From Campylobacter concisus (GTDB lineage: Bacteria > Campylobacterota > Campylobacteria > Campylobacterales > Campylobacteraceae), in NCBI GenBank assembly GCA_018371535.1, contig JAHAKU010000007.1, positions 19,796-83,795 of the forward strand: a stretch of 64,000 nucleotides of DNA. Direction: 5' to 3'. Each line of letters starts with the position of its first letter. The first letter of the stretch is position 1. The notes beneath the pieces are model-generated. The model did not search any database. It saw only the letters and a program-made list of their open reading frames with translations, and was not told the origin of the DNA. The translations under genes were made by a program, and so were the position numbers. This document shows positions 27,029 through 41,512 of this stretch, piece after piece.

Positions 27029-29275
27029 TTAAAATTTAACCGATGCGGTGAGCATGAACTGCCTAGCATAGCCTGGCTGTATCGGTATGATATTTGCCTG
27101 CGTGCCAGTCGATGAAGATGTGTAGTAGAGCTTATCGGTTATGTTTTTGACATTAAATGAGAAATTTGTCTCATAGCCTGCGATCTTTGTATCATAGCTG
27201 ATAAAAGCGTCATAAACAACCGCACTATTTATCTTAAATGCCGTTCCTGCTGGCACCGCAGGTAAATTTGTCCTCATATAGTATGTATACCACGAGCCAA
27301 AATACCTAGCTCCACCGCCGATCCTTAGCCCTTTTGCGCCAAGATGGCTAAAGTCGTAGTTAGCAAAGAGGCTTGCTTGATGCTTTGGCGTGGCTTCAAG
27401 CGGTTTGCCAACGAGTACTGCAAAGGCACCACTATCTTTTCGCACATCAGTTTTAGTGTATGCGTAGCTAGCGCCAAGACTTAGCCCCTGCGTTACACGA
27501 CCATTAAAATCAAACTCAAATCCTCTAGAGCGCGCCTCGCCAACTGGCGTACTCACGCCATCTACAGTGCGCATGATGTTTTTCTTGTTGATGTTAAAAA
27601 CCGCTGCACTTGCTGTTATGCTATCGTTTTGAAATTTAGATCCAAACTCTATACTCTTGCCCTCTTCTGGCTTTATATCGCCTATGTCAGCGCCGCTGAT
27701 CGCCATTTGTGGGTTGAAGCTTTGCGCGTAGTTGGTATAGACCGACCACTCGGGTGTTAGCAGGTACAAAAGCCCAGTTTGCCACGTAAATTTGCCATCT
27801 TGCTGATCTGTGCTATTTAGTCCGCTAGTTGTACCGCGAGCTACTTGGTCGTAGTATTCGTATCTAGCTCCTAAAGAGTAGATCAAATTTTGGGTCAAAT
27901 TTATGCTATCTTGCGCGTAAAATCCGATCGTTTTTAGCTTTTGGTACTGGATACCTGAGGCTCTATCAGACGGATAGGCTACCGTGCCATAGACTGGGTT
28001 ATAGATATTTATAGGGAAGTTTTTGTGCACGATGCCAGTGCTATAGCTGTTTAGTGCGCCAGGCCTATAGCGGTAGTACTCCTTTGCGTCGATGCCAAAG
28101 AGCAAGTTGTGCTCCAGCTCGCCTGTTTTAACATAGCCATTTAAATTTAATGAACCTGCGTGCGTGCGGTGGATAAAGCCGTCATACGCCTCGTTTCGCC
28201 TAGATGCAACGCCAGTGTTTAAATTTACATTCATTAGCCTGATGTGACCGTACTCATGACGAGACCTAGAAAAGGCATAAGCGCCCTTTAACATCCAGTT
28301 TTCGCCAAGATTTTTCTCAAAATTTATATCAGCAGTGTCAAGCTTTGTTTTAAGCTTATTAAATGGCTCGTCAAGTCGTCTTTTCTTATCTATAGGCAGT
28401 AGTTCGCCGGTGCTTGGGATGAGATACATGCCGCGGTCGATCGGATCGGTTGAGCGAGTATGGGTGTAGGCGAAATTTATGCGGTAGTCATCGCCTTTAT
28501 ATGACAGTGATGGCGCAAAAAGGACGTTTTTATACTCGCCAAACTCTCTCCAATAGTCCTTTTTCATCGTATCAAATATAAATCTATACGCAAAGCCGCT
28601 CTCTGCGATCGGCCCTGTGGTGTCAAAGCCCGTGTTCCAGTAGTTGCGGTTGCCAAAACCAGTCCAAATTTCATTTGCAAAGTCATATTTTGGCTTTTTA
28701 GTTACCATGTTTATTATGCCGCCTGGCTCTTGCGCGCCGTAAAGCAAGCTAGCTGGTCCTTTTAGCACCTCGACGCTTTCTACAGTTTTGTTAAAGCTAT
28801 GCATGACGCTAGCTGGTACGCCATTTCGCATTATAGAGCCATCACGTCCGCCACCAAAGCCTCGCTTGATGATCGAGTCAAAAATGCCGCCTGTTGTGTT
28901 GCCATAGCTTATGCCGCTCACGTTTTGAAGGCTCTCTGCTAGTGTCTCTGGCTTTTTGTCTTTTAGTTGTTGAGCTGTCACGACATTTACGGTTTGTGGT
29001 ATCTCAAGGATAGGTGTATTTGTCTTGCCAACTTCGCTCGTTGTCGCTCTATAACCATCATCCGCGCTATCTTCTACGCTCACGCCTTCTAAATTTACAT
29101 CAGCGCCATTTAGAGCCGAGATAGCAGCGCAAAGTGCTATGCTAATAGTGCATTTTTTCAAACTAGATACTTTAAAATTTAATGTATTAAAAATCGTTAT
29201 CATTATATAAAAGTGAAATTTAAAATTTGATGAAAAATTTACAAAGAATTTATGATAAAAATTTAGAGCAGGCAA
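27029..29275 (-). CDS. TonB-dependent outer-membrane receptor (siderophore type)
   Basis: 748 aa; signal peptide; plug domain and C-terminal beta-barrel ending in aromatic residue (…LTASVKF). Confidence 0.8.
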   Translation of the reverse strand: MPALNFYHKFFVNFSSNFKFHFYIMITIFNTLNFKVSSLKKCTISIALCAAISALNGADVNLEGVSVEDSADDGYRATTSEVGKTNTPILEIPQTVNVVTAQQLKDKKPETLAESLQNVSGISYGNTTGGIFDSIIKRGFGGGRDGSIMRNGVPASVMHSFNKTVESVEVLKGPASLLYGAQEPGGIINMVTKKPKYDFANEIWTGFGNRNYWNTGFDTTGPIAESGFAYRFIFDTMKKDYWREFGEYKNVLFAPSLSYKGDDYRINFAYTHTRSTDPIDRGMYLIPSTGELLPIDKKRRLDEPFNKLKTKLDTADINFEKNLGENWMLKGAYAFSRSRHEYGHIRLMNVNLNTGVASRRNEAYDGFIHRTHAGSLNLNGYVKTGELEHNLLFGIDAKEYYRYRPGALNSYSTGIVHKNFPINIYNPVYGTVAYPSDRASGIQYQKLKTIGFYAQDSINLTQNLIYSLGARYEYYDQVARGTTSGLNSTDQQDGKFTWQTGLLYLLTPEWSVYTNYAQSFNPQMAISGADIGDIKPEEGKSIEFGSKFQNDSITASAAVFNINKKNIMRTVDGVSTPVGEARSRGFEFDFNGRVTQGLSLGASYAYTKTDVRKDSGAFAVLVGKPLEATPKHQASLFANYDFSHLGAKGLRIGGGARYFGSWYTYYMRTNLPAVPAGTAFKINSAVVYDAFISYDTKIAGYETNFSFNVKNITDKLYYTSSSTGTQANIIPIQPGYARQFMLTASVKF

Positions 29276-29552: not shown

Positions 29553-31529
29553 ATGAAAAAACTCTTTTCTAGCTTGTCTAACAAGATAGCCTTTTTGCTG
29601 ACAGCTTGGATGCTAATAGGCATAGGCATATTTTTTAGCATAAACTACTCAAATTCCAAGTCGGAAAAAATTCAGTCGTACAACAACGTGCGAAAAACTG
29701 GGCTAAAATCGACAATGTACTTTGTCGATGAGTTTTTAAAGTCAAGACTTCACATGGTGCAAAACTTTGCAAAAGAGCTTGAGGATAAAAAGCTCTATAC
29801 CAGCAGGGACGACATAGCTGAGGCACTAAAGGGTGCGCTTATCATTTCGCCATTTGACGCGCTATTTGTGGGCTACGCAGACAATGGCAACGTCATAAAG
29901 ACTGATCTTTTGAAAAACAACGAGCCATTTTTGATACCAAATTTTGACGGTCGCACGAGGGCTTGGTTTCAGGGTGCGAGCAGCAGCGGCAAGCCTGGAT
30001 TTTCAGAGCCATACATAGATGTCACAACAAAGAATTTAACCATCACAGCCTACGCTCCTATTTTTAATGACAAACACCAGCTAGTAGCGGTAATCGGCGC
30101 AAATATCTTCTTAAACAGCTTTAGTCAGGAGCTTTTAGAGATAAAAACGACTAAGACTTCAAGTATCATGATCGCCGATGACAACGGCAAAGCGATAGTT
30201 CATCCTGATATAAATTTGATCACAAAAGAAGATGAAACCTATAAAAACCTCATCAAAGAAAATATGAAAAAGAGCATAGAGGGCGACAAGGTTTCGCTAT
30301 TTTTCCATAACGGTATGAGAAACGTCATCTACTGCCAAAACCAAAAGCTAACAGGCTGGAACGTCTGTATAGTGGCTGATGCTGATGAGTTTGTGGCTGA
30401 AATTCAAAGTGCTTCAAACAAGCAAATTTTGATGTTTGGCCTATTTTTGATCTCAGTCATCATCGCTATTATGGTGGTCGTTAGGTACTTCTTAAGGCCG
30501 GTTTTAACGATACAAAATGGGCTAATCGAAGTCTTTAAATTTATAAACAACAAAACTTCAAACGTCGAGCCTATCAAGCTAAAAACCAGCGACGAGCTAG
30601 GCGTTATGGCTGCTATTATAAACGAAAATATAGAGAGCACAAAAGAAAATTTAAATAACGAGCGTGAGTTTTTAGCCAAAACGCAAGAATTTGTAAGCAA
30701 GATAAAAGGTGGCGACTTTAGAGCAACGCTTGAAGCGACGACAAATAGCCAAGCTCTGCTAAAACTAAAAGAGGCATTTGGCGAGCTAAGAGACGCACTA
30801 AAGACAAATATCGCTTCAAACGAGCACGACATCTTAAAAGCGCTAGAAATTTACTTTAAAAACGACTTTACCGCTAGGATAAACGACGAGGGCGTCATCG
30901 CAAAAGGTATCGACGCACTTGGTGACAAGATCGCGCAGATGCTAAAAAATAATGAAGATGTCGCAAAACTGCTAGAAGACCGTGCTAAAGCGCTAAAAGG
31001 CTATATGCAGGAGCTTACCACTAAGGCAAACAAGAGTGCGACTTCGCTTTCTGAGGGTGCGGCTGCGGTTGAGCAGATGAGTGCGTCTATGAGGCAGGTA
31101 AATGCAAGATCTGATGATGTCAAAAGGCAGTCTGAGGAGATAAAAAATATCATCACCATCATCCACGACATCGCCGATCAGACAAATTTACTAGCTCTTA
31201 ACGCTGCAATAGAAGCAGCACGTGCGGGCGAGCATGGCAGGGGCTTTGCGGTTGTGGCTGATGAGGTTAGAAATTTAGCCGAGCGCACTCAAAAAAGCCT
31301 TGGTGAGATCGAGGCAAATGCAAATATCCTAACGCAAAACATCGATGATATGAGTGCAGCCATAAATGAGCAAACCATAGCGATCGCTCAGATAAACACG
31401 CTAGTTGCCGATATCGACAACCTAACAAAAGAAAATCTTGAAGTGGCAAACCAAACAAACAAAGCCACAAACAAGGTTGATGAGATAGCTGATCAGATCG
31501 TAAAAGAGGTCGCTAAAAACAAATTTTAA
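29553..31529 (+). CDS. methyl-accepting chemotaxis protein with periplasmic Cache-type sensor
   Basis: 658 aa; TM–periplasmic domain–TM–HAMP–MCP signalling domain (…[34 protein letters not shown]…). Confidence 0.85.
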
Positions 31530-31600: not shown

Positions 31601-32923
31601 ATGAAGTACGCACATTTAGTTCAAATAGCAAGTTATCTATCAAAATTTAAAAAGATAAGCCAAGCAAAGCGCGTAAGCGACATGGCTATACTTATCGAAT
31701 TTAGCGGCGAAAAGATCATCTTTGATCTAAATAAGTCAAACTCAGCGATCTATAAAGATGACGAGCTAAAAGAGGCGAAAATTTATCAAGCACCCTTTGA
31801 TAATGTCCTAAAAAAACGCTTTAACGCCTCACATATAAAAAGCGTCGAGTGCCTAAAAAACAATAGAATTTTAAAATTTACCTGCACACAAAGTGGCTCA
31901 TATAAAAGCGAAAATTTCATCCTTTATCTTGAATTTACTGGCCGCTTTACAAACGCTGTGATAACTGATGAAAATAGCGTTATCATTGAGGCGCTAAGGC
32001 ACATCGACAATAGCTACCGCAAGATAGAAACTGGCGAGGTTTTAAAAGAGCTGCCAACCATCGCCATCAAAGAAAAGCCGTGCGAGCCTATAACTGACTT
32101 TGAGGCATTTTTTAAAAGTGAAGCAGCTAGGATAAATGAGGCTAGGATAGCTAGCTTGAAAGAGGCAAAGCTTACTAGTGTTCAAAAAAAGATAGATAGC
32201 ATGAGTGAAATTTTAAACTCGCTTGAAGATAAAGATGAGCTAATGAAAAAGAGCGAGGAGTTTGCAAACTACGGCACGCTCTTGCTTGCAAATTTGGCAA
32301 ATTTTAAGGGCTATGAGAGAGAAATTTGCCTGAAAGATTTTAACGACAACGAGATAAAACTAACTCTTAGCGATACGCCAAAAAATAGTGCAAATGAATT
32401 TTACTCAAGATCAAAAAAACTTCGTGCAAAAGCCCTTGGTGTGGAGATAGAAAAGAGAAATTTAAGTGAAAAGATCGAGTTTTTAGAAGGGCTAAAGTCG
32501 CTTTTAAAAGAGGCAAAAAGCGCTTACGAGCTTGAAATTTTAAGCCCAAAAAACAAGGCAAAACAAAGAGAGAGACACATAAAAGATGTAAGCGAAAATG
32601 CTGAAATTTTCTATGTTAGAGAGTTTAAAATTTTAGTTGGCAGAAACGAAAAAGGTAATATAAATTTGCTCGATCTTGCTAAAAAAGACGACATCTGGCT
32701 TCATCTAAAAGACGCCCCAAGCGCTCACGTCATCATAAAAACAAACAAGAGCAAAGTGCCAGAAGACGTGCTAGAAATGGCTGCTAAATTTTGCGTGGAA
32801 TTTAGCGTAAAAGGGGCTGGCAGATACGAGGTGGATTACACCAAACGCGAAAATTTAAGGCGTGAAAATGGCGCAAACGTCACTTACACAAACTACAAAA
32901 CGATCATCATAAATAAAGGCTAA
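31601..32923 (+). CDS. NFACT-family RNA-binding protein (RqcH/FbpA-like; annotated as fibronectin-binding protein in Campylobacter)
   Basis: 440 aa; N-terminal NFACT-N-like region, coiled coil, C-terminal NFACT-R/DUF814-like segment (…LHLKDAPSAHVIIK…). Confidence 0.6.
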   Translation: MKYAHLVQIASYLSKFKKISQAKRVSDMAILIEFSGEKIIFDLNKSNSAIYKDDELKEAKIYQAPFDNVLKKRFNASHIKSVECLKNNRILKFTCTQSGSYKSENFILYLEFTGRFTNAVITDENSVIIEALRHIDNSYRKIETGEVLKELPTIAIKEKPCEPITDFEAFFKSEAARINEARIASLKEAKLTSVQKKIDSMSEILNSLEDKDELMKKSEEFANYGTLLLANLANFKGYEREICLKDFNDNEIKLTLSDTPKNSANEFYSRSKKLRAKALGVEIEKRNLSEKIEFLEGLKSLLKEAKSAYELEILSPKNKAKQRERHIKDVSENAEIFYVREFKILVGRNEKGNINLLDLAKKDDIWLHLKDAPSAHVIIKTNKSKVPEDVLEMAAKFCVEFSVKGAGRYEVDYTKRENLRRENGANVTYTNYKTIIINKG

Positions 32924-33382: not shown

Positions 33383-33480
33383 TGGCGAGAGGATGAGAGA
33401 ATCGAACTCCCCACCAGACGGTCAACCGCCCAGTCATCGGGTTTGAAGCCCGTGAGCATCACCAGATTACTTTATCCTCC
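33383..33480 (-). tRNA. selC: selenocysteine-type tRNA (anticodon UCA), ~98 nt with long variable arm
   Basis: reverse complement reads GGAGGAUA…CGGG-CUUCAAA-CCCG…long extra arm…GGGAG-UUCGAUU-CUCUC-AUCCUCUC-GCCA; anticodon loop CUUCAAA is identical to E. coli selC; canonical T-loop; 3' GCCA. Confidence 0.6.
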
Positions 33481-33555
33481 GTGTGCGTTATTTTAGCAGA
33501 TTTAGATAAATTTTAGCCCATTTTCTATAAACTTTTTGAAATTACAAAAGGATTT

Positions 33556-34131
33556 ATGATTTCTAAATTTAGCGTTTTTGCATTTTTGGTCTTATTTTTT
33601 TGCTCTTGCTCATCAGTCCTCACCCCAGCAACAGCGCCGCTAAATGTATATGACGCATACTCCATTTCTCGCGATAAACGCGGCATCTACTCGATCTCTC
33701 GCGATAAATTTATCCAAAGCAAGCTACAAAGCAAAATTTTATTTTCTAAAGGGCTCAGCAACATCGACATCGAGATAGAGGTCTTTTATGGCGATGCCTA
33801 TCTCATAGGGCTTGTTGATAGCAAAGAGCTAGGAGATAAGCTAGTTGAGCTTGCCAAAAGCACGGATGGAGTGCGAAAAATTTACACCTATCTTAGGGTA
33901 AAAAAGAGCGAGTATCCGTGCGATAGCCTAAGCATACTTGCAAATTTAAAGCAAAATCTCTTCAAAGATAGCGTCGTTGAGGGCACAAATGTGCGTGTTA
34001 GCATCGTTGGCTGTGACGTTGTTTTTAGCGGTGTGGTAGATAGTATCGAGCAAGAAAAGCACGCCATTTGGTATGCTAAGCACATTAACGGCGTGGCTGA
34101 TGTCTATTCGTTTATCAAAGTTATCAAATAA
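33556..34131 (+). CDS. BON-domain (OsmY-like) lipoprotein
   Basis: lipobox (FFCSCSS); two BON-like repeats; contains a short internal tandem duplication (YSISRDK ×2). Confidence 0.55.
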   Translation: MISKFSVFAFLVLFFCSCSSVLTPATAPLNVYDAYSISRDKRGIYSISRDKFIQSKLQSKILFSKGLSNIDIEIEVFYGDAYLIGLVDSKELGDKLVELAKSTDGVRKIYTYLRVKKSEYPCDSLSILANLKQNLFKDSVVEGTNVRVSIVGCDVVFSGVVDSIEQEKHAIWYAKHINGVADVYSFIKVIK

Positions 34132-34133
34132 AT

Positions 34134-36584
34134 TTATACCTCGCGCTTTTTCATAAAACTTGCTATCAAACTTGGCAAGATGATGAGCGCGCCAAGCAGC
34201 ATAAATACCATAACAAGATCAGTTAGCAAGCCAAAATAAATTGTCGGTATAAAGTTGCTAGTTATCATCACACTAAAGCCAAGGAAAATGGTAAATGAGG
34301 TGTAATACATCGCGTATCCGATGCTAGCATGCGCAGCCTTGATGCTTTCAAAAACGTCCTTTGTAAGCAGCTCCTCTTTGAAGCGGTGGATGTAGTGGAT
34401 AATATCATCAACGCCGATGCCTATACTAATAGCAGCAATCGTAATGCTCATCACATCAAGCGGAATGCCAAAAAATCCCATCACGCCAAAAAGGGTGCAA
34501 AGCGGGATCAAATTTGAAACTATGGCGATGGTCGCCAGCTTGATACTTCTAAAAACAAAGCAAAATATAACAAAAAGTATCGCAACTGTTAGTCCAAATG
34601 TATCAACCTGCGAGCTAAGCAAATTTTGAAGCATGTTGTTATAAAGCACCATCATACCGACAACTTCGATGCTTACGTTATCGTTTTTAGTAAGCTTGGC
34701 AAGCCCTTCTCTAAGCTCTTTTAGAAATAAATTTCGTCTAAGCTTTGGATCGCTATCGATGATCCTTAGGCTAAATCTAAGCTCGTCGTTTTCAACGCTC
34801 ACGTAAGGACTTAGCAAGATCTTTTTATACTCAAGTGGTAGCTTTTCATACATCGCAGCTAGCAAAAAATCATCACTAACGCCGTTATTTAGCTCTTTTA
34901 TCGCCTTTATAAGCGTTGCAAGAGAGCTTACGTTGCCTACAAAATTTTGCTCTTTTAGATAGTCGTGGATTTTCTCTGCAACTCTTGTGTGGTAGCTGTT
35001 AAACCAGTATTTTGCACTCTTTGCGTCGTTTTCAAACTCACTTTCAAAGTCATCTTTCTCATCATTTTTTTCTTGTTTTGGCTCGCTCTCTTTAAATTTC
35101 ACTATCACATCAACTGGGATCGTGCCACCAAGCTTTGTGTCAATAATCTGCATGCCCTGGCGGATCTGCGTGCTCTCTTTAAAGTAGCCAATGAAGCTGT
35201 TTTCAACCTTTATCTTGCTTATGCCATAAACGCCAAAACAGACAACAAGCACGCAAACTGCGTAGATGATCTTTCTTGAGTTTAGGGCTAAATTTGCGCA
35301 GTATTTTGTAAATTTAAAGCTATTTTCAAATGTCCTAACAGGAGCAAGCTTCTTTAAATTTACATTTACCGAGCCAAATAGCAAAAATGCAAGCACAAGT
35401 GAAACGCTGATACCTGCACTCATCATAATGCCAAGCATGATAACTGGCTTTATATCGGCACTCATGAGTGAGCTAAAGCCAATAACAGTTGTAAATATCG
35501 CCCAAAAAGATGGAGAAAATTTGTCACGAAGTGTTAGATAGATGAGCTGGTTTTGGCTGTATTTTGGATGTCTTGCGTAAAATTCTCTGTAGCTAACGAC
35601 TAGGTGGATGACTGTTGAGATGGTGATAATTAGCTGAAGTGCGATGTAGTTTGAGCTAATGACCGTCACTTCCCAACCAAACATACCAAAAATTCCAGTC
35701 GTAAAAATGGCACTTACCGCACAGATAAACATCGGCAAAACGATCCATCTAATCTGCCTAAAAAATAGCCACAAACTAAAGCTAAGAAGCGCTAAAACAC
35801 TTAGCCCATAAACCAAAAGATCACTCTTTATAAAGCCTATCATATCATCAGCGATCATGTTTGCGCCACCCAAAAAGAGCTCGTCATTTGCGTTAAATTT
35901 AGCGATGGCTGTCTTTATGGCTTCAAGGTTTTTGTGATCGCTCTTTCTAAGCTCATCTCGGTAGGCTTTAAACTCAGCCACGAGCGCTTGAAATTTAAGC
36001 TTTTCTGCCTGCGTGATAGTGCCATTTGACTCTTTTTGGCTAAGTAAATTTCTCTCATTTAAAAGCTCGTTAAATTTCTCATCTTGCTTTAAATTTAGCG
36101 CGATCGCTGTGGTTTTTAGATCTTTGCTTATCAAATTTCCACTATAAATGGGACTTTTTGCAAACTCAAGCTTTGCTTTTGAGATATTTATATCTTTATC
36201 GCTTAGCGTTGGCGTATGCTCTAAGATGCCTGTTACGCCGCCTTTTACGCTATTTAGAAGTGGCACATTTAAGATAGAGATGACGCTGCTAACCATATCG
36301 TTTTTGGCTAGCTCGCCACTCAAATTTTTAATAAGCTCTAAATTTTTAGGTAAAAAAAGATCATCTTTTGGGGTGAAAGCAACCACCAAAAGCCCTGGCG
36401 AGTCGTAGCGCTTTGCGATCTGCCTATAAGCTTTTAGATCAGGGTCATGCTCAAGCAGCAAGGTCTCAGCCGAAGCATCGATGCTAAGCTTTGTGCTAAG
36501 GCAGCCAAAAACTACGCTTAAAACTAGCACAAGCGAGATAACAAGCTTGTTTTTGGCAATGATAAATTTAAAAATTTGTCGCAT
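34134..36584 (-). CDS. MMPL/RND-superfamily inner-membrane transporter (HpnN-like)
   Basis: 816 aa; two 6-TM bundles each preceded by a large periplasmic domain; overlaps mlaC-like gene by 1 nt. Confidence 0.7.
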   Translation of the reverse strand: MRQIFKFIIAKNKLVISLVLVLSVVFGCLSTKLSIDASAETLLLEHDPDLKAYRQIAKRYDSPGLLVVAFTPKDDLFLPKNLELIKNLSGELAKNDMVSSVISILNVPLLNSVKGGVTGILEHTPTLSDKDINISKAKLEFAKSPIYSGNLISKDLKTTAIALNLKQDEKFNELLNERNLLSQKESNGTITQAEKLKFQALVAEFKAYRDELRKSDHKNLEAIKTAIAKFNANDELFLGGANMIADDMIGFIKSDLLVYGLSVLALLSFSLWLFFRQIRWIVLPMFICAVSAIFTTGIFGMFGWEVTVISSNYIALQLIITISTVIHLVVSYREFYARHPKYSQNQLIYLTLRDKFSPSFWAIFTTVIGFSSLMSADIKPVIMLGIMMSAGISVSLVLAFLLFGSVNVNLKKLAPVRTFENSFKFTKYCANLALNSRKIIYAVCVLVVCFGVYGISKIKVENSFIGYFKESTQIRQGMQIIDTKLGGTIPVDVIVKFKESEPKQEKNDEKDDFESEFENDAKSAKYWFNSYHTRVAEKIHDYLKEQNFVGNVSSLATLIKAIKELNNGVSDDFLLAAMYEKLPLEYKKILLSPYVSVENDELRFSLRIIDSDPKLRRNLFLKELREGLAKLTKNDNVSIEVVGMMVLYNNMLQNLLSSQVDTFGLTVAILFVIFCFVFRSIKLATIAIVSNLIPLCTLFGVMGFFGIPLDVMSITIAAISIGIGVDDIIHYIHRFKEELLTKDVFESIKAAHASIGYAMYYTSFTIFLGFSVMITSNFIPTIYFGLLTDLVMVFMLLGALIILPSLIASFMKKREV

Positions 36585-37186
36585 TAAGGATTAGTTTTGT
36601 TTTGATCAGGCAAAACCGCTTCGTTGAGTTTTTGTAAAAGCGTATTAAAATCGCCATTGTTTAGCACGTCGCCAAACTGGCTTCTATAAGTTTGAATGAT
36701 GCTCACACCAACGATATCAAGGTCGTAAATGAGCCAGCCACGCTCTTTTGCATCGTAAAATTTATAGACAAATTCATAGTTTTTGCCGTCATTTAGAAGC
36801 TCTGATGTAAGCCAGTATCTATTTTTTTGAGGCTCACTCTCTCCAGTGATGTGGATCTGTTGGTCTTTGTAGCCTAAGAGCTTGTCGATATATGAGCTTT
36901 TTAGCTTTTGCTCAAATGCTGCGTCAAATTTAGCTTGCTCGTCAGCACTTAGGCTGTTGTAGCGTTTGCCAAGGCTGATCTTTGCCATTTGTTTGTAGTC
37001 AAATAGTGGATCAAGCAGAGCAAAAATCTCTTTTGTCTTTGCATTGTTGTCTAAATTTGTATTTTTTAAAATTTCAATCACCTTTGTTGTCTTTGCCTCT
37101 ATCTCAGGCTTTATCTGCTCTTTTGAGAGGGCAAAAAGGCTAGTTGCAAAAAGTAAAACCGCTGCAAGAATTTTTAAAATTTTCAT
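36584..37186 (-). CDS. MlaC/Ttg2D-family periplasmic phospholipid-binding protein
   Basis: 200 aa; signal peptide; toluene-tolerance Ttg2D/MlaC family features. Confidence 0.65.
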   Translation of the reverse strand: MKILKILAAVLLFATSLFALSKEQIKPEIEAKTTKVIEILKNTNLDNNAKTKEIFALLDPLFDYKQMAKISLGKRYNSLSADEQAKFDAAFEQKLKSSYIDKLLGYKDQQIHITGESEPQKNRYWLTSELLNDGKNYEFVYKFYDAKERGWLIYDLDIVGVSIIQTYRSQFGDVLNNGDFNTLLQKLNEAVLPDQNKTNP

Positions 37187-37188
37187 AC

Positions 37189-37902
37189 TTACTCCTTGAT
37201 AAGTTTATCGCGTCTTTGCTCGTAAGCATCGCGTAAAAATGGATATAGATCGATCGCGTCTTTGCGTAGTTTTTCATATGCTGTTGGGTCTTGTGCAAAG
37301 CTGTTAAACGTCCTATAAGACATGATACCAAGCGATAAAAGCATAGGGTCTACGTAGCTGATAGGATCGGCAAAATAGTCGCCAACTAGGCCTCCAGTAT
37401 CTCTTAAATTTGATGGTCCGATAAGTGGCCAAACGATGTGAAAGCCGCTTCCAAGCCCCCAGTAGCCAAGTGTTTGTCCAAAGTCCTCGTTGTGAGCCTT
37501 TAGATCATAGTATTTTGCCCCGTCTGTTAGCCCTCCAAAGCCAATTATCGTATTTGCCAAAAAGCGCAAAGTCTCTTCACCAGCGTTTTGAAATTTAAAC
37601 TGAAGCAAGTTATTTACAAAACGCACTGGAAAAAGGAGGTTGTCAAAGAAATTTGCAACCATCGTTCTAGCCGTAGCTGGCACGACATAAGCGTAGCCTT
37701 TTGCAACTGGAGTTAGCATATTTATGTAGATAAAGTCATTTACATTTGTCATCACTCTGTTGTAGCCACTAAGCGGGTCAAACACATCTTTTTTTGCTTC
37801 AAACTCAACATCAAAATCATCTTTTTCACTGTTTGCGTTCAAATCAGCGCTGGCACAGGCTAAAAGCAGGCTACAAAAGATAGCAAGCAAAAATTTCATC
37901 AT
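37189..37902 (-). CDS. MlaA/VacJ-family outer-membrane lipoprotein
   Basis: 237 aa; lipobox LLACAS; VacJ motif (FDPLSGYNRVMTNVND). Confidence 0.7.
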   Translation of the reverse strand: MMKFLLAIFCSLLLACASADLNANSEKDDFDVEFEAKKDVFDPLSGYNRVMTNVNDFIYINMLTPVAKGYAYVVPATARTMVANFFDNLLFPVRFVNNLLQFKFQNAGEETLRFLANTIIGFGGLTDGAKYYDLKAHNEDFGQTLGYWGLGSGFHIVWPLIGPSNLRDTGGLVGDYFADPISYVDPMLLSLGIMSYRTFNSFAQDPTAYEKLRKDAIDLYPFLRDAYEQRRDKLIKE

Positions 37903-38017: not shown

Positions 38018-38836
38018 TTGCAAGTTATTATTATATATTTAGAGGTTAAAAATTTGAAAGCAGATATAAATTTAGAGCTATTTCTGGGCGAAGATACGCA
38101 GGTTTTAGCAAAGCATATAGCGCTACTTAAAGCGATAAAAGAGACAAAAAGTATCACAAAAGCGGCTGAGGTTGTCGGCATATCATATAAAAACGCTTGG
38201 GACTGCTTAGATACGATAAATAACAAAAGCAGCAAGCCTCTCATCATAAGAGCTGATGGCAACAAGAAAAATAGCGGTTCAGAGCTTAGCCCATACGCCA
38301 AAAAACTGATAAAAATTTACGACGCTATCCTCGAGACACAAAAGGATTTTTTGCAAAAAATTTGCCAAAAGGTTGATTTTGAAGATGTCGATATCATAAA
38401 TTTACAAAGGATGAATATGAATTTAAGTGCGAGAAATCAGCTCTCATGTGAGATCGTCAGTATAAATAGAGGTGCTGTAAATTCTGAAATCATCGCAAAG
38501 CTAAGCAATGGCAACACGCTTGAAGCCACCATAACAGTTGAAAGCGAGAAAAATTTAGGCCTAAAAGTGGGTCAAAAGGTAGTTTTCATCTTTAAAGCGC
38601 CATCTGTCATCCTTGCAAAAGATCTTGATCTAAAAATAAGCACTAAAAATCAGCTAAAAGGTGAGGTCATCGAGGCAAAAATAGGCGCTGTAAATGCCGA
38701 GGTCACGCTAAAACTAAGCGACGAGCAGACCTTAACTGCCATCATCACAAAAGATAGCGCAATGGATATGCAAATAGGCGTTGGTGACACGCTTTTAGCA
38801 ATAGTAAAATCATCTCAAATCATAATAGGAGTATAA
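38018..38836 (+). CDS. ModE-like molybdenum-responsive transcriptional regulator (HTH plus two TOBE/Mop domains)
   Basis: 272 aa; N-terminal HTH (…SITKAAEVVGISYKNAWDCLDTIN…) and two C-terminal Mop repeats (NQLSCEIVSI…, NQLKGEVIEA…). Confidence 0.7.
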   Translation: MQVIIIYLEVKNLKADINLELFLGEDTQVLAKHIALLKAIKETKSITKAAEVVGISYKNAWDCLDTINNKSSKPLIIRADGNKKNSGSELSPYAKKLIKIYDAILETQKDFLQKICQKVDFEDVDIINLQRMNMNLSARNQLSCEIVSINRGAVNSEIIAKLSNGNTLEATITVESEKNLGLKVGQKVVFIFKAPSVILAKDLDLKISTKNQLKGEVIEAKIGAVNAEVTLKLSDEQTLTAIITKDSAMDMQIGVGDTLLAIVKSSQIIIGV

Positions 38837-39592
38837 ATGAAAAAGGTTTTTAAATTTCTATGTGTGGCGGCGTTGCTAGCTATAAACACCTTTGGCGCAG
38901 AGGTAAATGTCTATGCCGCAGCAAACACGACTTACGCGTTTCCAGAGCTTATAAAAGAGTTTAACAAGCTTCACCCAGACGCTAAGATCAACCTAACTCT
39001 TGGCGCAAGCGGTGGTCTTGTCACTCAGATACAAAACTCAGCTCCAGCTGATATCTTCATGGCTGCTGATATGGGATTTGCGCAAAAGGCCTACGACACA
39101 GGCTTTGCAGTGGCTGCTCCAAAAGTTTATGCTCAAGGAGCTTTGGCGATCTTTTCTATAAGAGATGTGGATTTTAAAAAGGGCATCGAAGTGGTTCGTG
39201 GCCTAAAAGCGATCTCAATAGCAAATCCAGAGACCGCACCTTATGGCAAGGCTAGTATCGAGGCTCTTAAAAATGCAAAACTTTATGACGAAGTAGAGAA
39301 AAACATCGTCTATGCTCAAAAAATTTCTGAGACACTTTCTCAGGCACTAAGTGCTTCAGACGTTGGATTTATCGCTGCTAGCGCGCTTTTTAGCGATAAA
39401 ATGGAAAAATACAAAGAGGGCACCAACTACATCTTCGTGCCTCAAGAGCTCTACACTCCGATCGATCAAGGCATAGTGCTCTTAAAACATGCTGATGGTA
39501 ACGCTGATGCGAAGGCATTTTATGAGTTTATCTTGGGCGAAAAGGCAAGAGAAATTTTCAAGAAATTTGGCTACAACGTCCCAGCTAAATGA
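38837..39592 (+). CDS. modA: molybdate ABC transporter substrate-binding protein
   Basis: 251 aa; signal peptide; ModA family. Confidence 0.8.
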   Translation: MKKVFKFLCVAALLAINTFGAEVNVYAAANTTYAFPELIKEFNKLHPDAKINLTLGASGGLVTQIQNSAPADIFMAADMGFAQKAYDTGFAVAAPKVYAQGALAIFSIRDVDFKKGIEVVRGLKAISIANPETAPYGKASIEALKNAKLYDEVEKNIVYAQKISETLSQALSASDVGFIAASALFSDKMEKYKEGTNYIFVPQELYTPIDQGIVLLKHADGNADAKAFYEFILGEKAREIFKKFGYNVPAK

Positions 39593-39978
39593 TAAGAGCA
39601 AAGATCGTTCAAATTTCATCCAAAGATGGCGTCAGTTTTTTTGAGCTTGAGTGCCTAAATTTAGGGATAAATTTATATATGCTAGCCTTAAATGAGGCTA
39701 GCAAATTTGCTCTAAATGATGAGGTGAGCTTAAATTTCAAAAGCTCAGACGTCGTCCTATCAAAGCTTAGACTTGAGGCTAGTTCGCTTGAAAATGAGCT
39801 AAAATGCGAGGTCGCTGGCATAACTCGCGGCGAAATTTTAAGCATAGTTAGCCTAAAGTGTGAGCAGATTTGCTTTGAGGCTATCATCTCAGATCACGCT
39901 CTAAAAGGGCTAAATTTAGCGGTAGGCGAGCAGGTTTTTGCCTACGTTAAATCAACAAGTATCCACGTAAGCGCTTAA
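39589..39978 (+). CDS. TOBE/Mop-domain molybdopterin/molybdate-binding protein
   Basis: 129 aa; two short Mop-like repeats; embedded between modA and modC. Confidence 0.55.
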   Translation: MIRAKIVQISSKDGVSFFELECLNLGINLYMLALNEASKFALNDEVSLNFKSSDVVLSKLRLEASSLENELKCEVAGITRGEILSIVSLKCEQICFEAIISDHALKGLNLAVGEQVFAYVKSTSIHVSA

Positions 39979-39980
39979 AA

Positions 39981-40838
39981 ATGATAGAAATTTCTTGCAA
40001 AAAAGAGCTAAATGGCGGTGGCGGTAAATTTATGCTTGAGGCTGAGCTTGCCTTTGAAAGTGGCGAGTTTGTCGCACTTTATGGAGCAAGTGGCGGAGGT
40101 AAAACGACGATTTTAAGGCTCATCGCTGGCTTTGAAGCCCCACAAAGTGGCGTGATAAAGGTTGGAGATAAGATATTTTTTGACGAAAAGACAAATTTAG
40201 CCCCGCAAAAGCGAAATATCGGCTTTTTGTTTCAAGACTACGCCCTTTTTGAAAATATGAATGTCTTTAAAAATTTGCTTTTTGCAAATAATGATGAAAA
40301 TTTAGCAAACAAACTACTTGAAATTTGCGAGCTTGGCTCTTTAAAAAACGCGAAAATTAGCACCCTTTCAGGCGGTCAAAAGCAGCGTGTGGCACTCGCT
40401 CGTGCGGTGATGAGAAAGCCAGAAATTTTACTGCTTGATGAGCCACTAAGCGCCCTAGATAACGCCATGCGCGAGAAGCTGCAAGACTATTTGCTAGCAC
40501 TTCACGATGAGTTTAAGATGAGTGTTATTTTAGTAAGTCACGACATAGCTGAAATTTACAAGCTTTGCAGCAAGGTTTTCGTCCTTGAAAATGGCAAAAT
40601 TTCAAGGTCTGGCAGTGCTAGTGAGATATTTTTAAAAAGTGCAGGATCGCAAAAATTTGCATTTAACGCTAAAGTTTTAGAGATCAAAAAGCGTGACGCT
40701 ATTTTTGTAGCAAGCGTGCTAATAAACCGCCAAATTTGCGAGGTCGTGCTAAGTAGCGCAGAAGCTAGTGGGCTAAGAGCTGGTGATACGGTGGTGGTTA
40801 GTACAAAAGCCTTTGGCGTAAATTTGGTAAAAGCATGA
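39981..40838 (+). CDS. modC: molybdate ABC transporter ATP-binding protein
   Basis: 285 aa; Walker A GASGGGKTT, ABC signature LSGGQKQRVALAR, Walker B LLLDEP; C-terminal TOBE-like extension. Confidence 0.8.
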   Translation: MIEISCKKELNGGGGKFMLEAELAFESGEFVALYGASGGGKTTILRLIAGFEAPQSGVIKVGDKIFFDEKTNLAPQKRNIGFLFQDYALFENMNVFKNLLFANNDENLANKLLEICELGSLKNAKISTLSGGQKQRVALARAVMRKPEILLLDEPLSALDNAMREKLQDYLLALHDEFKMSVILVSHDIAEIYKLCSKVFVLENGKISRSGSASEIFLKSAGSQKFAFNAKVLEIKKRDAIFVASVLINRQICEVVLSSAEASGLRAGDTVVVSTKAFGVNLVKA

Positions 40839-41512
40839 TGAACGAGCTAGCAAATATTGATTACGAGCCGTTTTGGCTCTCGCTAAAGCTCTCTTTTATC
40901 ACGACCTTTATACTATTTTTCTTCTGCGTGGGGCTTGCTTATTTTATGTCGCAAAAGAAATTCTTTGGCAAGGCGTTTTTAGAGTCCATCATCTCGCTGC
41001 CTTTGGTGCTGCCACCAAGCGTTCTTGGCTTTTATCTGCTTATTTTTCTCTCGCCATACTCGGCCTTTGGTAAATTTATCGAAGAGCTCTTTGGCGTGAG
41101 GCTAGTTTTTAACTTCACAGGCCTTGTTGTGGCAAGCTGTATCTACTCGCTGCCATTTATGTTTGGACCCATTTACGCTGGGCTAAATAGTCTAAAAAAG
41201 AGCCTTTTTGAGGCGAGCTACAGCCTTGGCAAAAGTAGGCTCACGACCATTTTTAGGGTCATCTTGCCAAGTATCAGATCAAACTTACTAACCGCGATCG
41301 TCGTTAGTTTTGCTCATACGATGGGCGAATTTGGCGTGGTTTTGATGATAGGCGGTAGCGTGGCTGGCGAGAGCAAGGTCGCTAGTATCGCGATATTTGA
41401 AGCGGTTGAGATGCTTGACTATACCAAAGCTCACATCTATGCACTTTTGATGCTCATAATTAGCTTTTTCGTTCTTTTTGTCGTCTATCTCTTAAATTCT
41501 AAAAAAGCTTAA
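40835..41512 (+). CDS. modB: molybdate ABC transporter permease
   Basis: 225 aa; 5-6 TM; EAA-type motif FEASYSLGKSRLTTIFRVILPS. Confidence 0.8.
   Translation: MMNELANIDYEPFWLSLKLSFITTFILFFFCVGLAYFMSQKKFFGKAFLESIISLPLVLPPSVLGFYLLIFLSPYSAFGKFIEELFGVRLVFNFTGLVVASCIYSLPFMFGPIYAGLNSLKKSLFEASYSLGKSRLTTIFRVILPSIRSNLLTAIVVSFAHTMGEFGVVLMIGGSVAGESKVASIAIFEAVEMLDYTKAHIYALLMLIISFFVLFVVYLLNSKKA

Follow-up and report, generated by a model that had tools for sequence, protein, structure and literature searches.

A conserved mlaA-mlaC-RND operon in Campylobacter concisus and its possible role in lipid traffic across the periplasm

In the 64-kb stretch of Campylobacter concisus DNA analysed here (64,000 nt of contig JAHAKU010000007.1, hereafter the window), genes for an MlaA-family lipoprotein and an MlaC-family lipid-binding protein are directly followed by a gene for an 816-aa RND permease, and this layout raises the question of whether such a permease, in place of the MlaFEDB ABC complex, could serve MlaC and MlaA at the inner membrane. 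The original prediction made from this DNA had proposed three tightly coupled genes, and the open reading frames (ORFs), the Pfam matches and the gene junctions all agree with it. ORF calling recovered exactly the three minus-strand frames that are listed in Table 1. Reading of the sequence indicated that the TAA stop codon of mlaA (37191-37189) is separated by a 2-nt spacer from the mlaC ATG at 37186, and that the mlaC TAA stop codon and the RND ATG have one nucleotide in common, 36584 (TAATG), so that the two junctions are seen as they had been described. Ribosome-binding sites were found upstream of the mlaA ATG (AAGG) and ahead of mlaC (AAGGAG), and none was found upstream of the RND ATG at 36584; this lack of a ribosome-binding site of its own, together with the TAATG overlap, fits translational coupling of mlaC and the RND gene. 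The mlaA-mlaC-RND array is one genuine C. concisus operon.

The 237-aa product of the first gene matched the Pfam MlaA family PF04333 at an E-value of 1.1e-67 (227.9 bits vs a cutoff of 25; model positions 2-194 of 195) and the NCBIfam MlaA model PRK15091 at 1.2e-28, the latter under the equivalog cutoff, and its N-terminus, MMKFLLAIFCSLLLAC, carries a lipobox-like Cys at the end (LLLAC motif). The 200-aa product of the second gene has a signal-peptide-like N-terminus. Its full-length match to the Pfam MlaC family PF05494 (1.9e-38, 132.3 bits vs a cutoff of 26; model positions 3-166 of 166) and its PDB sequence matches, 2qgu at 9e-11, Ttg2D 6hsy at 3e-08 and MlaC 8oj4 at 1.6e-05, point to membership of the MlaC family, as had been predicted. 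Among the NCBIfam models, the best score of this protein was obtained with the HpnM model TIGR03481 (71.6 bits vs 32.5 bits for the E. coli-type MlaC model), and both scores lie under cutoff.

The class of the 816-aa protein was assessed by profile searches and by structure prediction. It matched Pfam MMPL at 4.9e-16 in two stretches (59 bits vs a gathering score of 20.5). Among the NCBIfam models, HAE3 TIGR00921 ranked first (3.8e-35), followed by HpnN (5.8e-20) and MMPL (8.8e-17), and the same ranking was repeated in 18 of 18 RND relatives. All of these matches are under cutoff: the scores were 121.1 bits vs 351.9 for HAE3 TIGR00921, 60.7 vs 874.7 for MMPL TIGR00833, and 52.4 vs 1100 and 70.9 vs 751.85 for the HpnN models NF052374 and TIGR03480, respectively. 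A sequence search of the PDB gave weak matches, to a Plasmodium NPC1-related protein (2e-12) and HpnN (1e-4), with AcrB-type (HAE1) and CusA-type pumps as weak partial matches at E-values of about 1e-3, and no MmpL3 chain was found at E ≤ 0.01. The AlphaFold2 model, built from 88 sequences (predicted local distance difference test score 82.9, predicted template-modelling score 0.75), comprises 12 transmembrane (TM) helices and two periplasmic domains. Using Foldseek against the PDB, the top matches of this model were MmpL5 and MmpL4 (TM-score 0.71), PfNCR1 (0.69), MmpL3 (0.67) and HpnN (0.65), with E-values of 1e-23 to 1e-18, TM-scores of 0.65-0.72 to MmpL5/4/3 and HpnN, and about 13% identity. 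Each of these best matches in structure is an exporter of lipids or sterols (MmpL3/4/5, HpnN, NCR1/NPC1), and neither AcrB-type pumps nor SecDF were present in the top 50 matches. Collectively, the profiles and the predicted fold indicate that the protein is, as predicted, an MMPL/HpnN-like RND permease of the lipid-transporter type, in a subfamily that has no name.

Two named identities were tried and rejected. SecDF or HAE1 was ruled out by the profile ranking in the 18 relatives, of which only two were touched by the HAE1 model TIGR00915, at 1e-4, and by the predicted fold. HpnN itself was ruled out by the scores and by the lack of hopanoid synthesis in Campylobacterota (PMC12324291). In the predicted structure, residues 169-228 form a long helical hairpin in the first periplasmic domain that recalls the coiled coil of MmpL4/5, and residues 501-521 form a disordered acidic insert in the second; the hairpin or the insert could be a docking site for MlaC.

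The distribution of this gene arrangement speaks strongly for a functional link. The RND family counts 2638 cluster representatives at 50% identity (E ≤ 1e-30), and the closest homologues in the first search were C. concisus proteins with 97-99% identity. A genome scan with an alignment of 18 RND sequences, keeping one genome per species, yielded 80 loci (L001-L080), around which MlaA and MlaC neighbours were found by profile searches seeded with the two proteins of the window. These loci represent at least eight phyla and span Campylobacterota, Desulfobacterota, SAR324, Nitrospirota, Planctomycetota (including anammox lineages), Gammaproteobacteria, Elusimicrobia and Nitrospinaceae. An MlaC-like gene was found near the RND gene in 63 of the 80 loci and directly upstream on the same strand in 60, where the mlaC-RND junction is overlapping or not longer than 30 nt in 43. 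An MlaA-like gene is adjacent to the RND gene in 55 loci, upstream in 33 (the order A-C-RND; Campylobacterota, SAR324, Nitrospirota and Elusimicrobia) and directly downstream in 22 (C-RND-A; Desulfobacterota and Planctomycetota). All-against-all clustering of the neighbouring ORFs indicated that MlaC-like and MlaA-like proteins are the sole conserved neighbours, the other clusters occurring in at most 18 of the loci or representing antisense shadow ORFs, and E. coli-like MlaE or MlaD was not found near the RND gene in any of the 80. All 62 RND-linked MlaC-like proteins matched the HpnM model, and 60 of them matched the E. coli-type MlaC model too. Because an MlaC-like gene stands directly upstream in 60 of 80 species, the RND-mlaC adjacency is not chance. 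This conserved synteny, together with the two gammaproteobacterial loci described below, makes it likely that the RND permease is functionally linked to MlaC and MlaA in one pathway.

The same survey bears on another explanation, in which the permease would be a plain efflux pump that removes toxic hydrophobic compounds (for example bile salts, fatty acids or solvents); it would share an envelope-stress regulon with mlaA and mlaC but exchange no lipid with their products. Such a role would agree with the NCBI protein name ("efflux RND transporter permease subunit"), with the historical designation of MlaC relatives as toluene-tolerance proteins and with the roughly one-fifth of RND-family members that lack Mla neighbours. 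However, genes for a membrane-fusion protein or an outer-membrane factor are neither adjacent in the window nor conserved across the 80 loci, the fold matches lipid transporters and not AcrB or MexB, and a stop-start overlap with co-inheritance in at least eight phyla and in two gene orders is far tighter than co-regulation needs, so we hold the efflux explanation to be very improbable.

Whether the permease is able to stand in for an ABC machine is addressed by two loci. In an Acidiferrobacteraceae metagenome-assembled genome (MAG; L068:100-12700), the order rpoN<lptB<lptA<lptC<kdsD is followed by ORF>RND>mlaC>bolA>grx>murA>hisD, and in Gammaproteobacteria RBG_16_51_14 (L064:5900-11900) the order is RND>mlaC>88-aa ORF>bolA>murA>hisG. 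For comparison, E. coli MG1655 carries mlaFEDCB-ibaG-murA, divergent from yrbG-kdsD, a side that continues into lptCAB-rpoN. In L064 and L068, the RND gene occupies the mlaFED(B) position of the E. coli-type mlaFEDCB-ibaG-murA locus, and the mlaC genes beside it are the most E. coli-like among the loci (3e-21 and 9e-19). The presence of the RND gene in the mlaFED slot beside an E. coli-type mlaC argues that this permease may be able to serve as the inner-membrane partner of MlaC.

That position is also how a non-orthologous replacement would look, which lends support to a pathway made of the same three proteins and running in the retrograde direction, as a functional equivalent of MlaFED powered by the proton-motive force (PMF). 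MlaA and MlaC are indeed assigned to retrograde traffic in E. coli (summarised in bioRxiv 10.64898/2026.08.28.747810, the C. jejuni preprint of 28 August 2026). Yet C. jejuni already possesses MlaEFD for retrograde transport, and a second system for it would be redundant. In addition, no characterised member of the closest structural classes, MmpL3/4/5 and HpnN, is known to move its substrate other than outward from the inner membrane. On balance, we consider retrograde operation unlikely.

The inner-membrane protein encoded in the C. concisus operon is the RND permease, and queries with MlaE, MlaD and MlaB of E. coli MG1655 gave no match within the window, where the sole ATPase with Walker-A and LSGGQ motifs belongs to a mod-like operon. 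To this extent the proposal that the permease is present "instead of MlaFEDB" stands for the operon; for the genome it probably does not. C. jejuni carries mlaEFD at Cj1646-1648 while mlaB is absent (Davies et al. 2019, PMC6549495), in an operon separate from Cj1371-Cj1373 (bioRxiv 10.64898/2026.08.28.747810), and a literature search on mlaE of C. concisus found nothing. Because C. jejuni retains mlaEFD elsewhere, the RND permease is, by analogy, most likely a second inner-membrane partner and not a replacement of MlaFEDB.

Residue conservation was counted over 75 diverse representatives of the RND family, and the strongly conserved positions in TM4 and TM10 (Table 1) make a proton relay through them plausible, although not canonical. 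In the mechanism that we favour, the permease would use the proton gradient through a network of Asp726, His730 and Tyr731 in TM10 and His327 in TM4, would extract a glycerophospholipid or lysophospholipid from the periplasmic leaflet of the inner membrane and would load it onto soluble MlaC, which would then diffuse to the MlaA lipoprotein for anterograde delivery into the outer membrane. The single MlaA/MlaC pair would probably serve the separately encoded MlaFED ABC system as well, for the return traffic. We put the chance that the operon encodes this PMF-driven shuttle, from RND through MlaC and MlaA to the outer membrane, at about even. What the data show are the gene identities, the fold class of the permease, the tight or overlapping junctions and the conservation of exactly these three genes as a module in many phyla; that the proteins pass lipid to one another, which lipid it is, which way it moves and how the transport is energised are inferred.

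The pathway might also be real with a cargo other than bulk glycerophospholipid, that is, a lineage-specific hydrophobic envelope molecule; candidates would be a subclass of lysophospholipids, a quinone or a lipid-linked intermediate in Campylobacter, and hopanoids or other specialised lipids in Planctomycetota or Desulfobacterota. Sister RND systems do carry non-phospholipids (hopanoids for HpnN/HpnM/HpnS and sterols for BstA/B/C), and the HpnM matches of all 62 RND-linked MlaC-like proteins, with the higher HpnM score of the C. concisus protein, would fit such a cargo. C. jejuni MlaC bears on both sides: its binding of lyso-phosphatidylglycerol is enhanced, but it co-purifies mainly with ordinary phosphatidylethanolamine and phosphatidylglycerol (bioRxiv 10.64898/2026.08.28.747810). 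Moreover, the phyla that share the module differ greatly in their special lipids, a point in favour of a universal cargo, and hopanoids are excluded as the Campylobacter cargo because squalene-hopene cyclase, and with it hopanoid synthesis, is absent from Campylobacterota (PMC12324291). A special cargo thus seems to us a rather poor bet, and the glycerophospholipid or lysophospholipid shuttle is kept as the preferred reading.

Several points weigh against this anterograde shuttle. Since every NCBIfam match of the permease stays below its curated cutoff, a function cannot be taken over from any named orthologue. The Asp that belongs to the Asp-Tyr pairs of the MmpL3 type is missing from TM4, and the proton path is for this reason not canonical. 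On flanks of sufficient length, about 15 of the 80 RND-family members lack an Mla neighbour; beside these no alternative carrier gene was found, and their neighbours are unrelated (PIN, prepilin peptidase, SbmA/BacA, TMEM43-like and OmpA-like proteins). Since MlaA and MlaC are assigned to the retrograde direction in E. coli, their presence by itself gives no direction. Finally, the literature search found no functional study of Cj1373 or of the C. concisus RND permease.

The routes by which phospholipids pass between the inner and the outer membrane of Gram-negative bacteria, and the direction of each system, are still debated. If the shuttle were true, MlaC and MlaA operating on a proton-driven pump would offer a clean system in which to test direction and energy coupling, and in Campylobacter, where lysophospholipids are unusually abundant and have been linked to motility and gut colonisation, the operon could account for their passage to the outer membrane. 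A wider proposal, which we regard as speculative and for the present doubtful, is that MlaC and MlaA have in the RND family a general, proton-driven partner at the inner membrane. This would be a second widespread class of Mla system, which forms a strict three-gene module in at least eight phyla, can replace MlaFED in situ (as in L064 and L068) and is possibly a bulk anterograde phospholipid exporter.

Table 1. Genes, candidate promoter and conserved permease residues of the C. concisus operon (positions in the window; residue counts over 75 RND-family representatives)
Feature	Coordinates	Strand	Description
mlaA (vacJ)	37189..37902	-	237 aa, outer-membrane MlaA-family lipoprotein, first gene of the operon
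mlaC	36584..37186	-	200 aa, periplasmic lipid-binding protein of the MlaC/Ttg2D/HpnM family
RND permease	34134..36584	-	816 aa, MMPL/HAE3/HpnN lipid-transporter class; positional orthologue of C. jejuni Cj1373
Candidate promoter TTCAAA-17-TATAAT	38030..38058	-	about 128 nt upstream of the mlaA ATG; weak evidence
RND TM10 D726			conserved in 73/75
RND TM10 H730			conserved in 72/75
RND TM10 Y731			conserved in 71/75
RND TM4 H327			conserved in 73/75
RND TM4 N312			conserved in 73/75

The candidate promoter, situated in the divergent region that mlaA and the modE-like gene have in common, is the best consensus match there (10 of 12 positions); this region holds no more promoter-like sites than shuffled sequence does (11 vs 11.9), and the site is thus a candidate only. 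In the same scan no terminator was found after the RND gene, and the counts were no higher than in shuffled sequence. Upstream of mlaA, with which it shares a 115-bp intergenic region, lies a divergent plus-strand operon (38018-41512) that presumably serves the uptake of molybdate or tungstate. Its first product is a ModE-like regulator (a helix-turn-helix and two TOBE domains); the others are a periplasmic binding protein, a TOBE protein, an ABC ATPase and a permease. On the other side, a plus-strand gene for a 191-aa protein with two BON domains (33556-34131) converges on the RND gene. The stop codons of the two genes are 2 nt apart and leave no room for a terminator, so that their transcripts probably overlap; a comparable antisense 3′ untranslated region over Cj1373 is known in C. 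jejuni. This BON neighbour is conserved only in the closest relatives, C. concisus and Campylobacter MAGs (L001-L004 and L007). A minus-strand tRNA-Sec gene follows at 33387-33481 (ARAGORN; Rfam RF01852, 50.4 bits); the window has no other tRNA and no other Rfam match. Further away lie genes for a TonB-dependent receptor (27029-29275, minus strand), a dCache methyl-accepting chemotaxis protein (29553-31529) and an NFACT-family protein (31601-32923), none of which was linked to the operon in other species by the neighbour clustering of the 80 loci. Antisense ORFs of 80-110 aa inside the RND genes fall into three clusters, which recur in 54-64 of the loci and are most simply shadow ORFs arising from the conserved sense frame; in C. 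jejuni, one small antisense ORF opposite Cj1373 has been validated.

The nearest known system is that of C. jejuni, in which mlaA (Cj1371) and mlaC (Cj1372) are co-transcribed with the RND gene Cj1373, Cj1372 and Cj1373 overlap by UAAUG, and a H+-driven RND permease has been proposed to load MlaC for anterograde transport of phospholipids or lysophospholipids toward the outer membrane, MlaC being the only protein characterised experimentally (bioRxiv 10.64898/2026.08.28.747810). The genus, the gene order and the mlaC-RND stop-start overlap (TAATG/UAAUG) are the same as in C. concisus. The same order is found in C. novaezeelandiae (L014), a relative from the C. lari group that is the nearest proxy for Cj1373 and has 47% RND identity to C. 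concisus. The flanks differ, with the convergent BON-domain gene and the divergent mod operon in C. concisus and Cj1374c in C. jejuni. The "high sequence identity with MmpL3" that the preprint gives for Cj1373 was not seen in the C. concisus permease (no match at E ≤ 0.01 and about 13% identity in the structural alignment), the likeness of which to MmpL3 is one of fold and class only. The operon arrangement and the lipid-shuttle hypothesis are hence already published for C. jejuni, and of the uncharacterised PMF-driven lipid route that the original prediction had suggested here, the functional link of the permease to MlaC and MlaA is backed by synteny while the novelty is not. The C. concisus locus is a further copy of the operon described in C. 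jejuni, and its added value is comparative. Literature searches on MlaA+MlaC+MMPL and on hpnM+hpnN+VacJ returned nothing broader than the C. jejuni operon and the hopanoid HpnN case; the breadth of the module, its two gene orders and the RND gene in place of mlaFED at its locus were not found described.

Among the more distant systems, HpnN (RND), HpnM (MlaC-like) and HpnS (MlaA-like) have been proposed as an Mla-like hopanoid route (Lawrence et al. 2025, PMC12324291). As in C. concisus, a permease of the same broad RND class is encoded with MlaC-like and MlaA-like proteins and would be the inner-membrane component, but the C. concisus proteins score far below the Hpn cutoffs (52-71 bits vs 752-1100 for the permease, and 71.6 vs 160.1 for MlaC with TIGR03481), even though TIGR03481 is the best-scoring model for this MlaC. 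The E. coli Mla pathway likewise combines an outer-membrane lipoprotein and a soluble carrier of the MlaA and MlaC families with an inner-membrane machine; there the machine is an ABC/MCE complex, whereas the partner in the C. concisus operon is an RND permease with a presumed proton drive, and the direction is possibly opposite. In Methylococcus, BstA, BstB and BstC unite an MmpL/HpnN-like RND protein with periplasmic and outer-membrane-associated lipid-binding partners for sterol cargo (PMC11713862). The BstA model weakly matched five of the 18 RND-family members, but the folds of the partners (PhnD-like and TRAP-T-like) are unrelated to MlaC and MlaA, and the cargo is sterols. Mycobacterial MmpL3, MmpL4 and MmpL5, the best structural matches to the permease model (TM-score 0.67-0.72), have the 12 TM helices, the two periplasmic domains and the hairpin insertion in common with it, whereas the C. 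concisus permease shows only about 13% identity to them, has its hairpin in the first periplasmic domain and no MmpS or AcpM partners, and carries His327 in TM4 instead of an Asp-Tyr pair.

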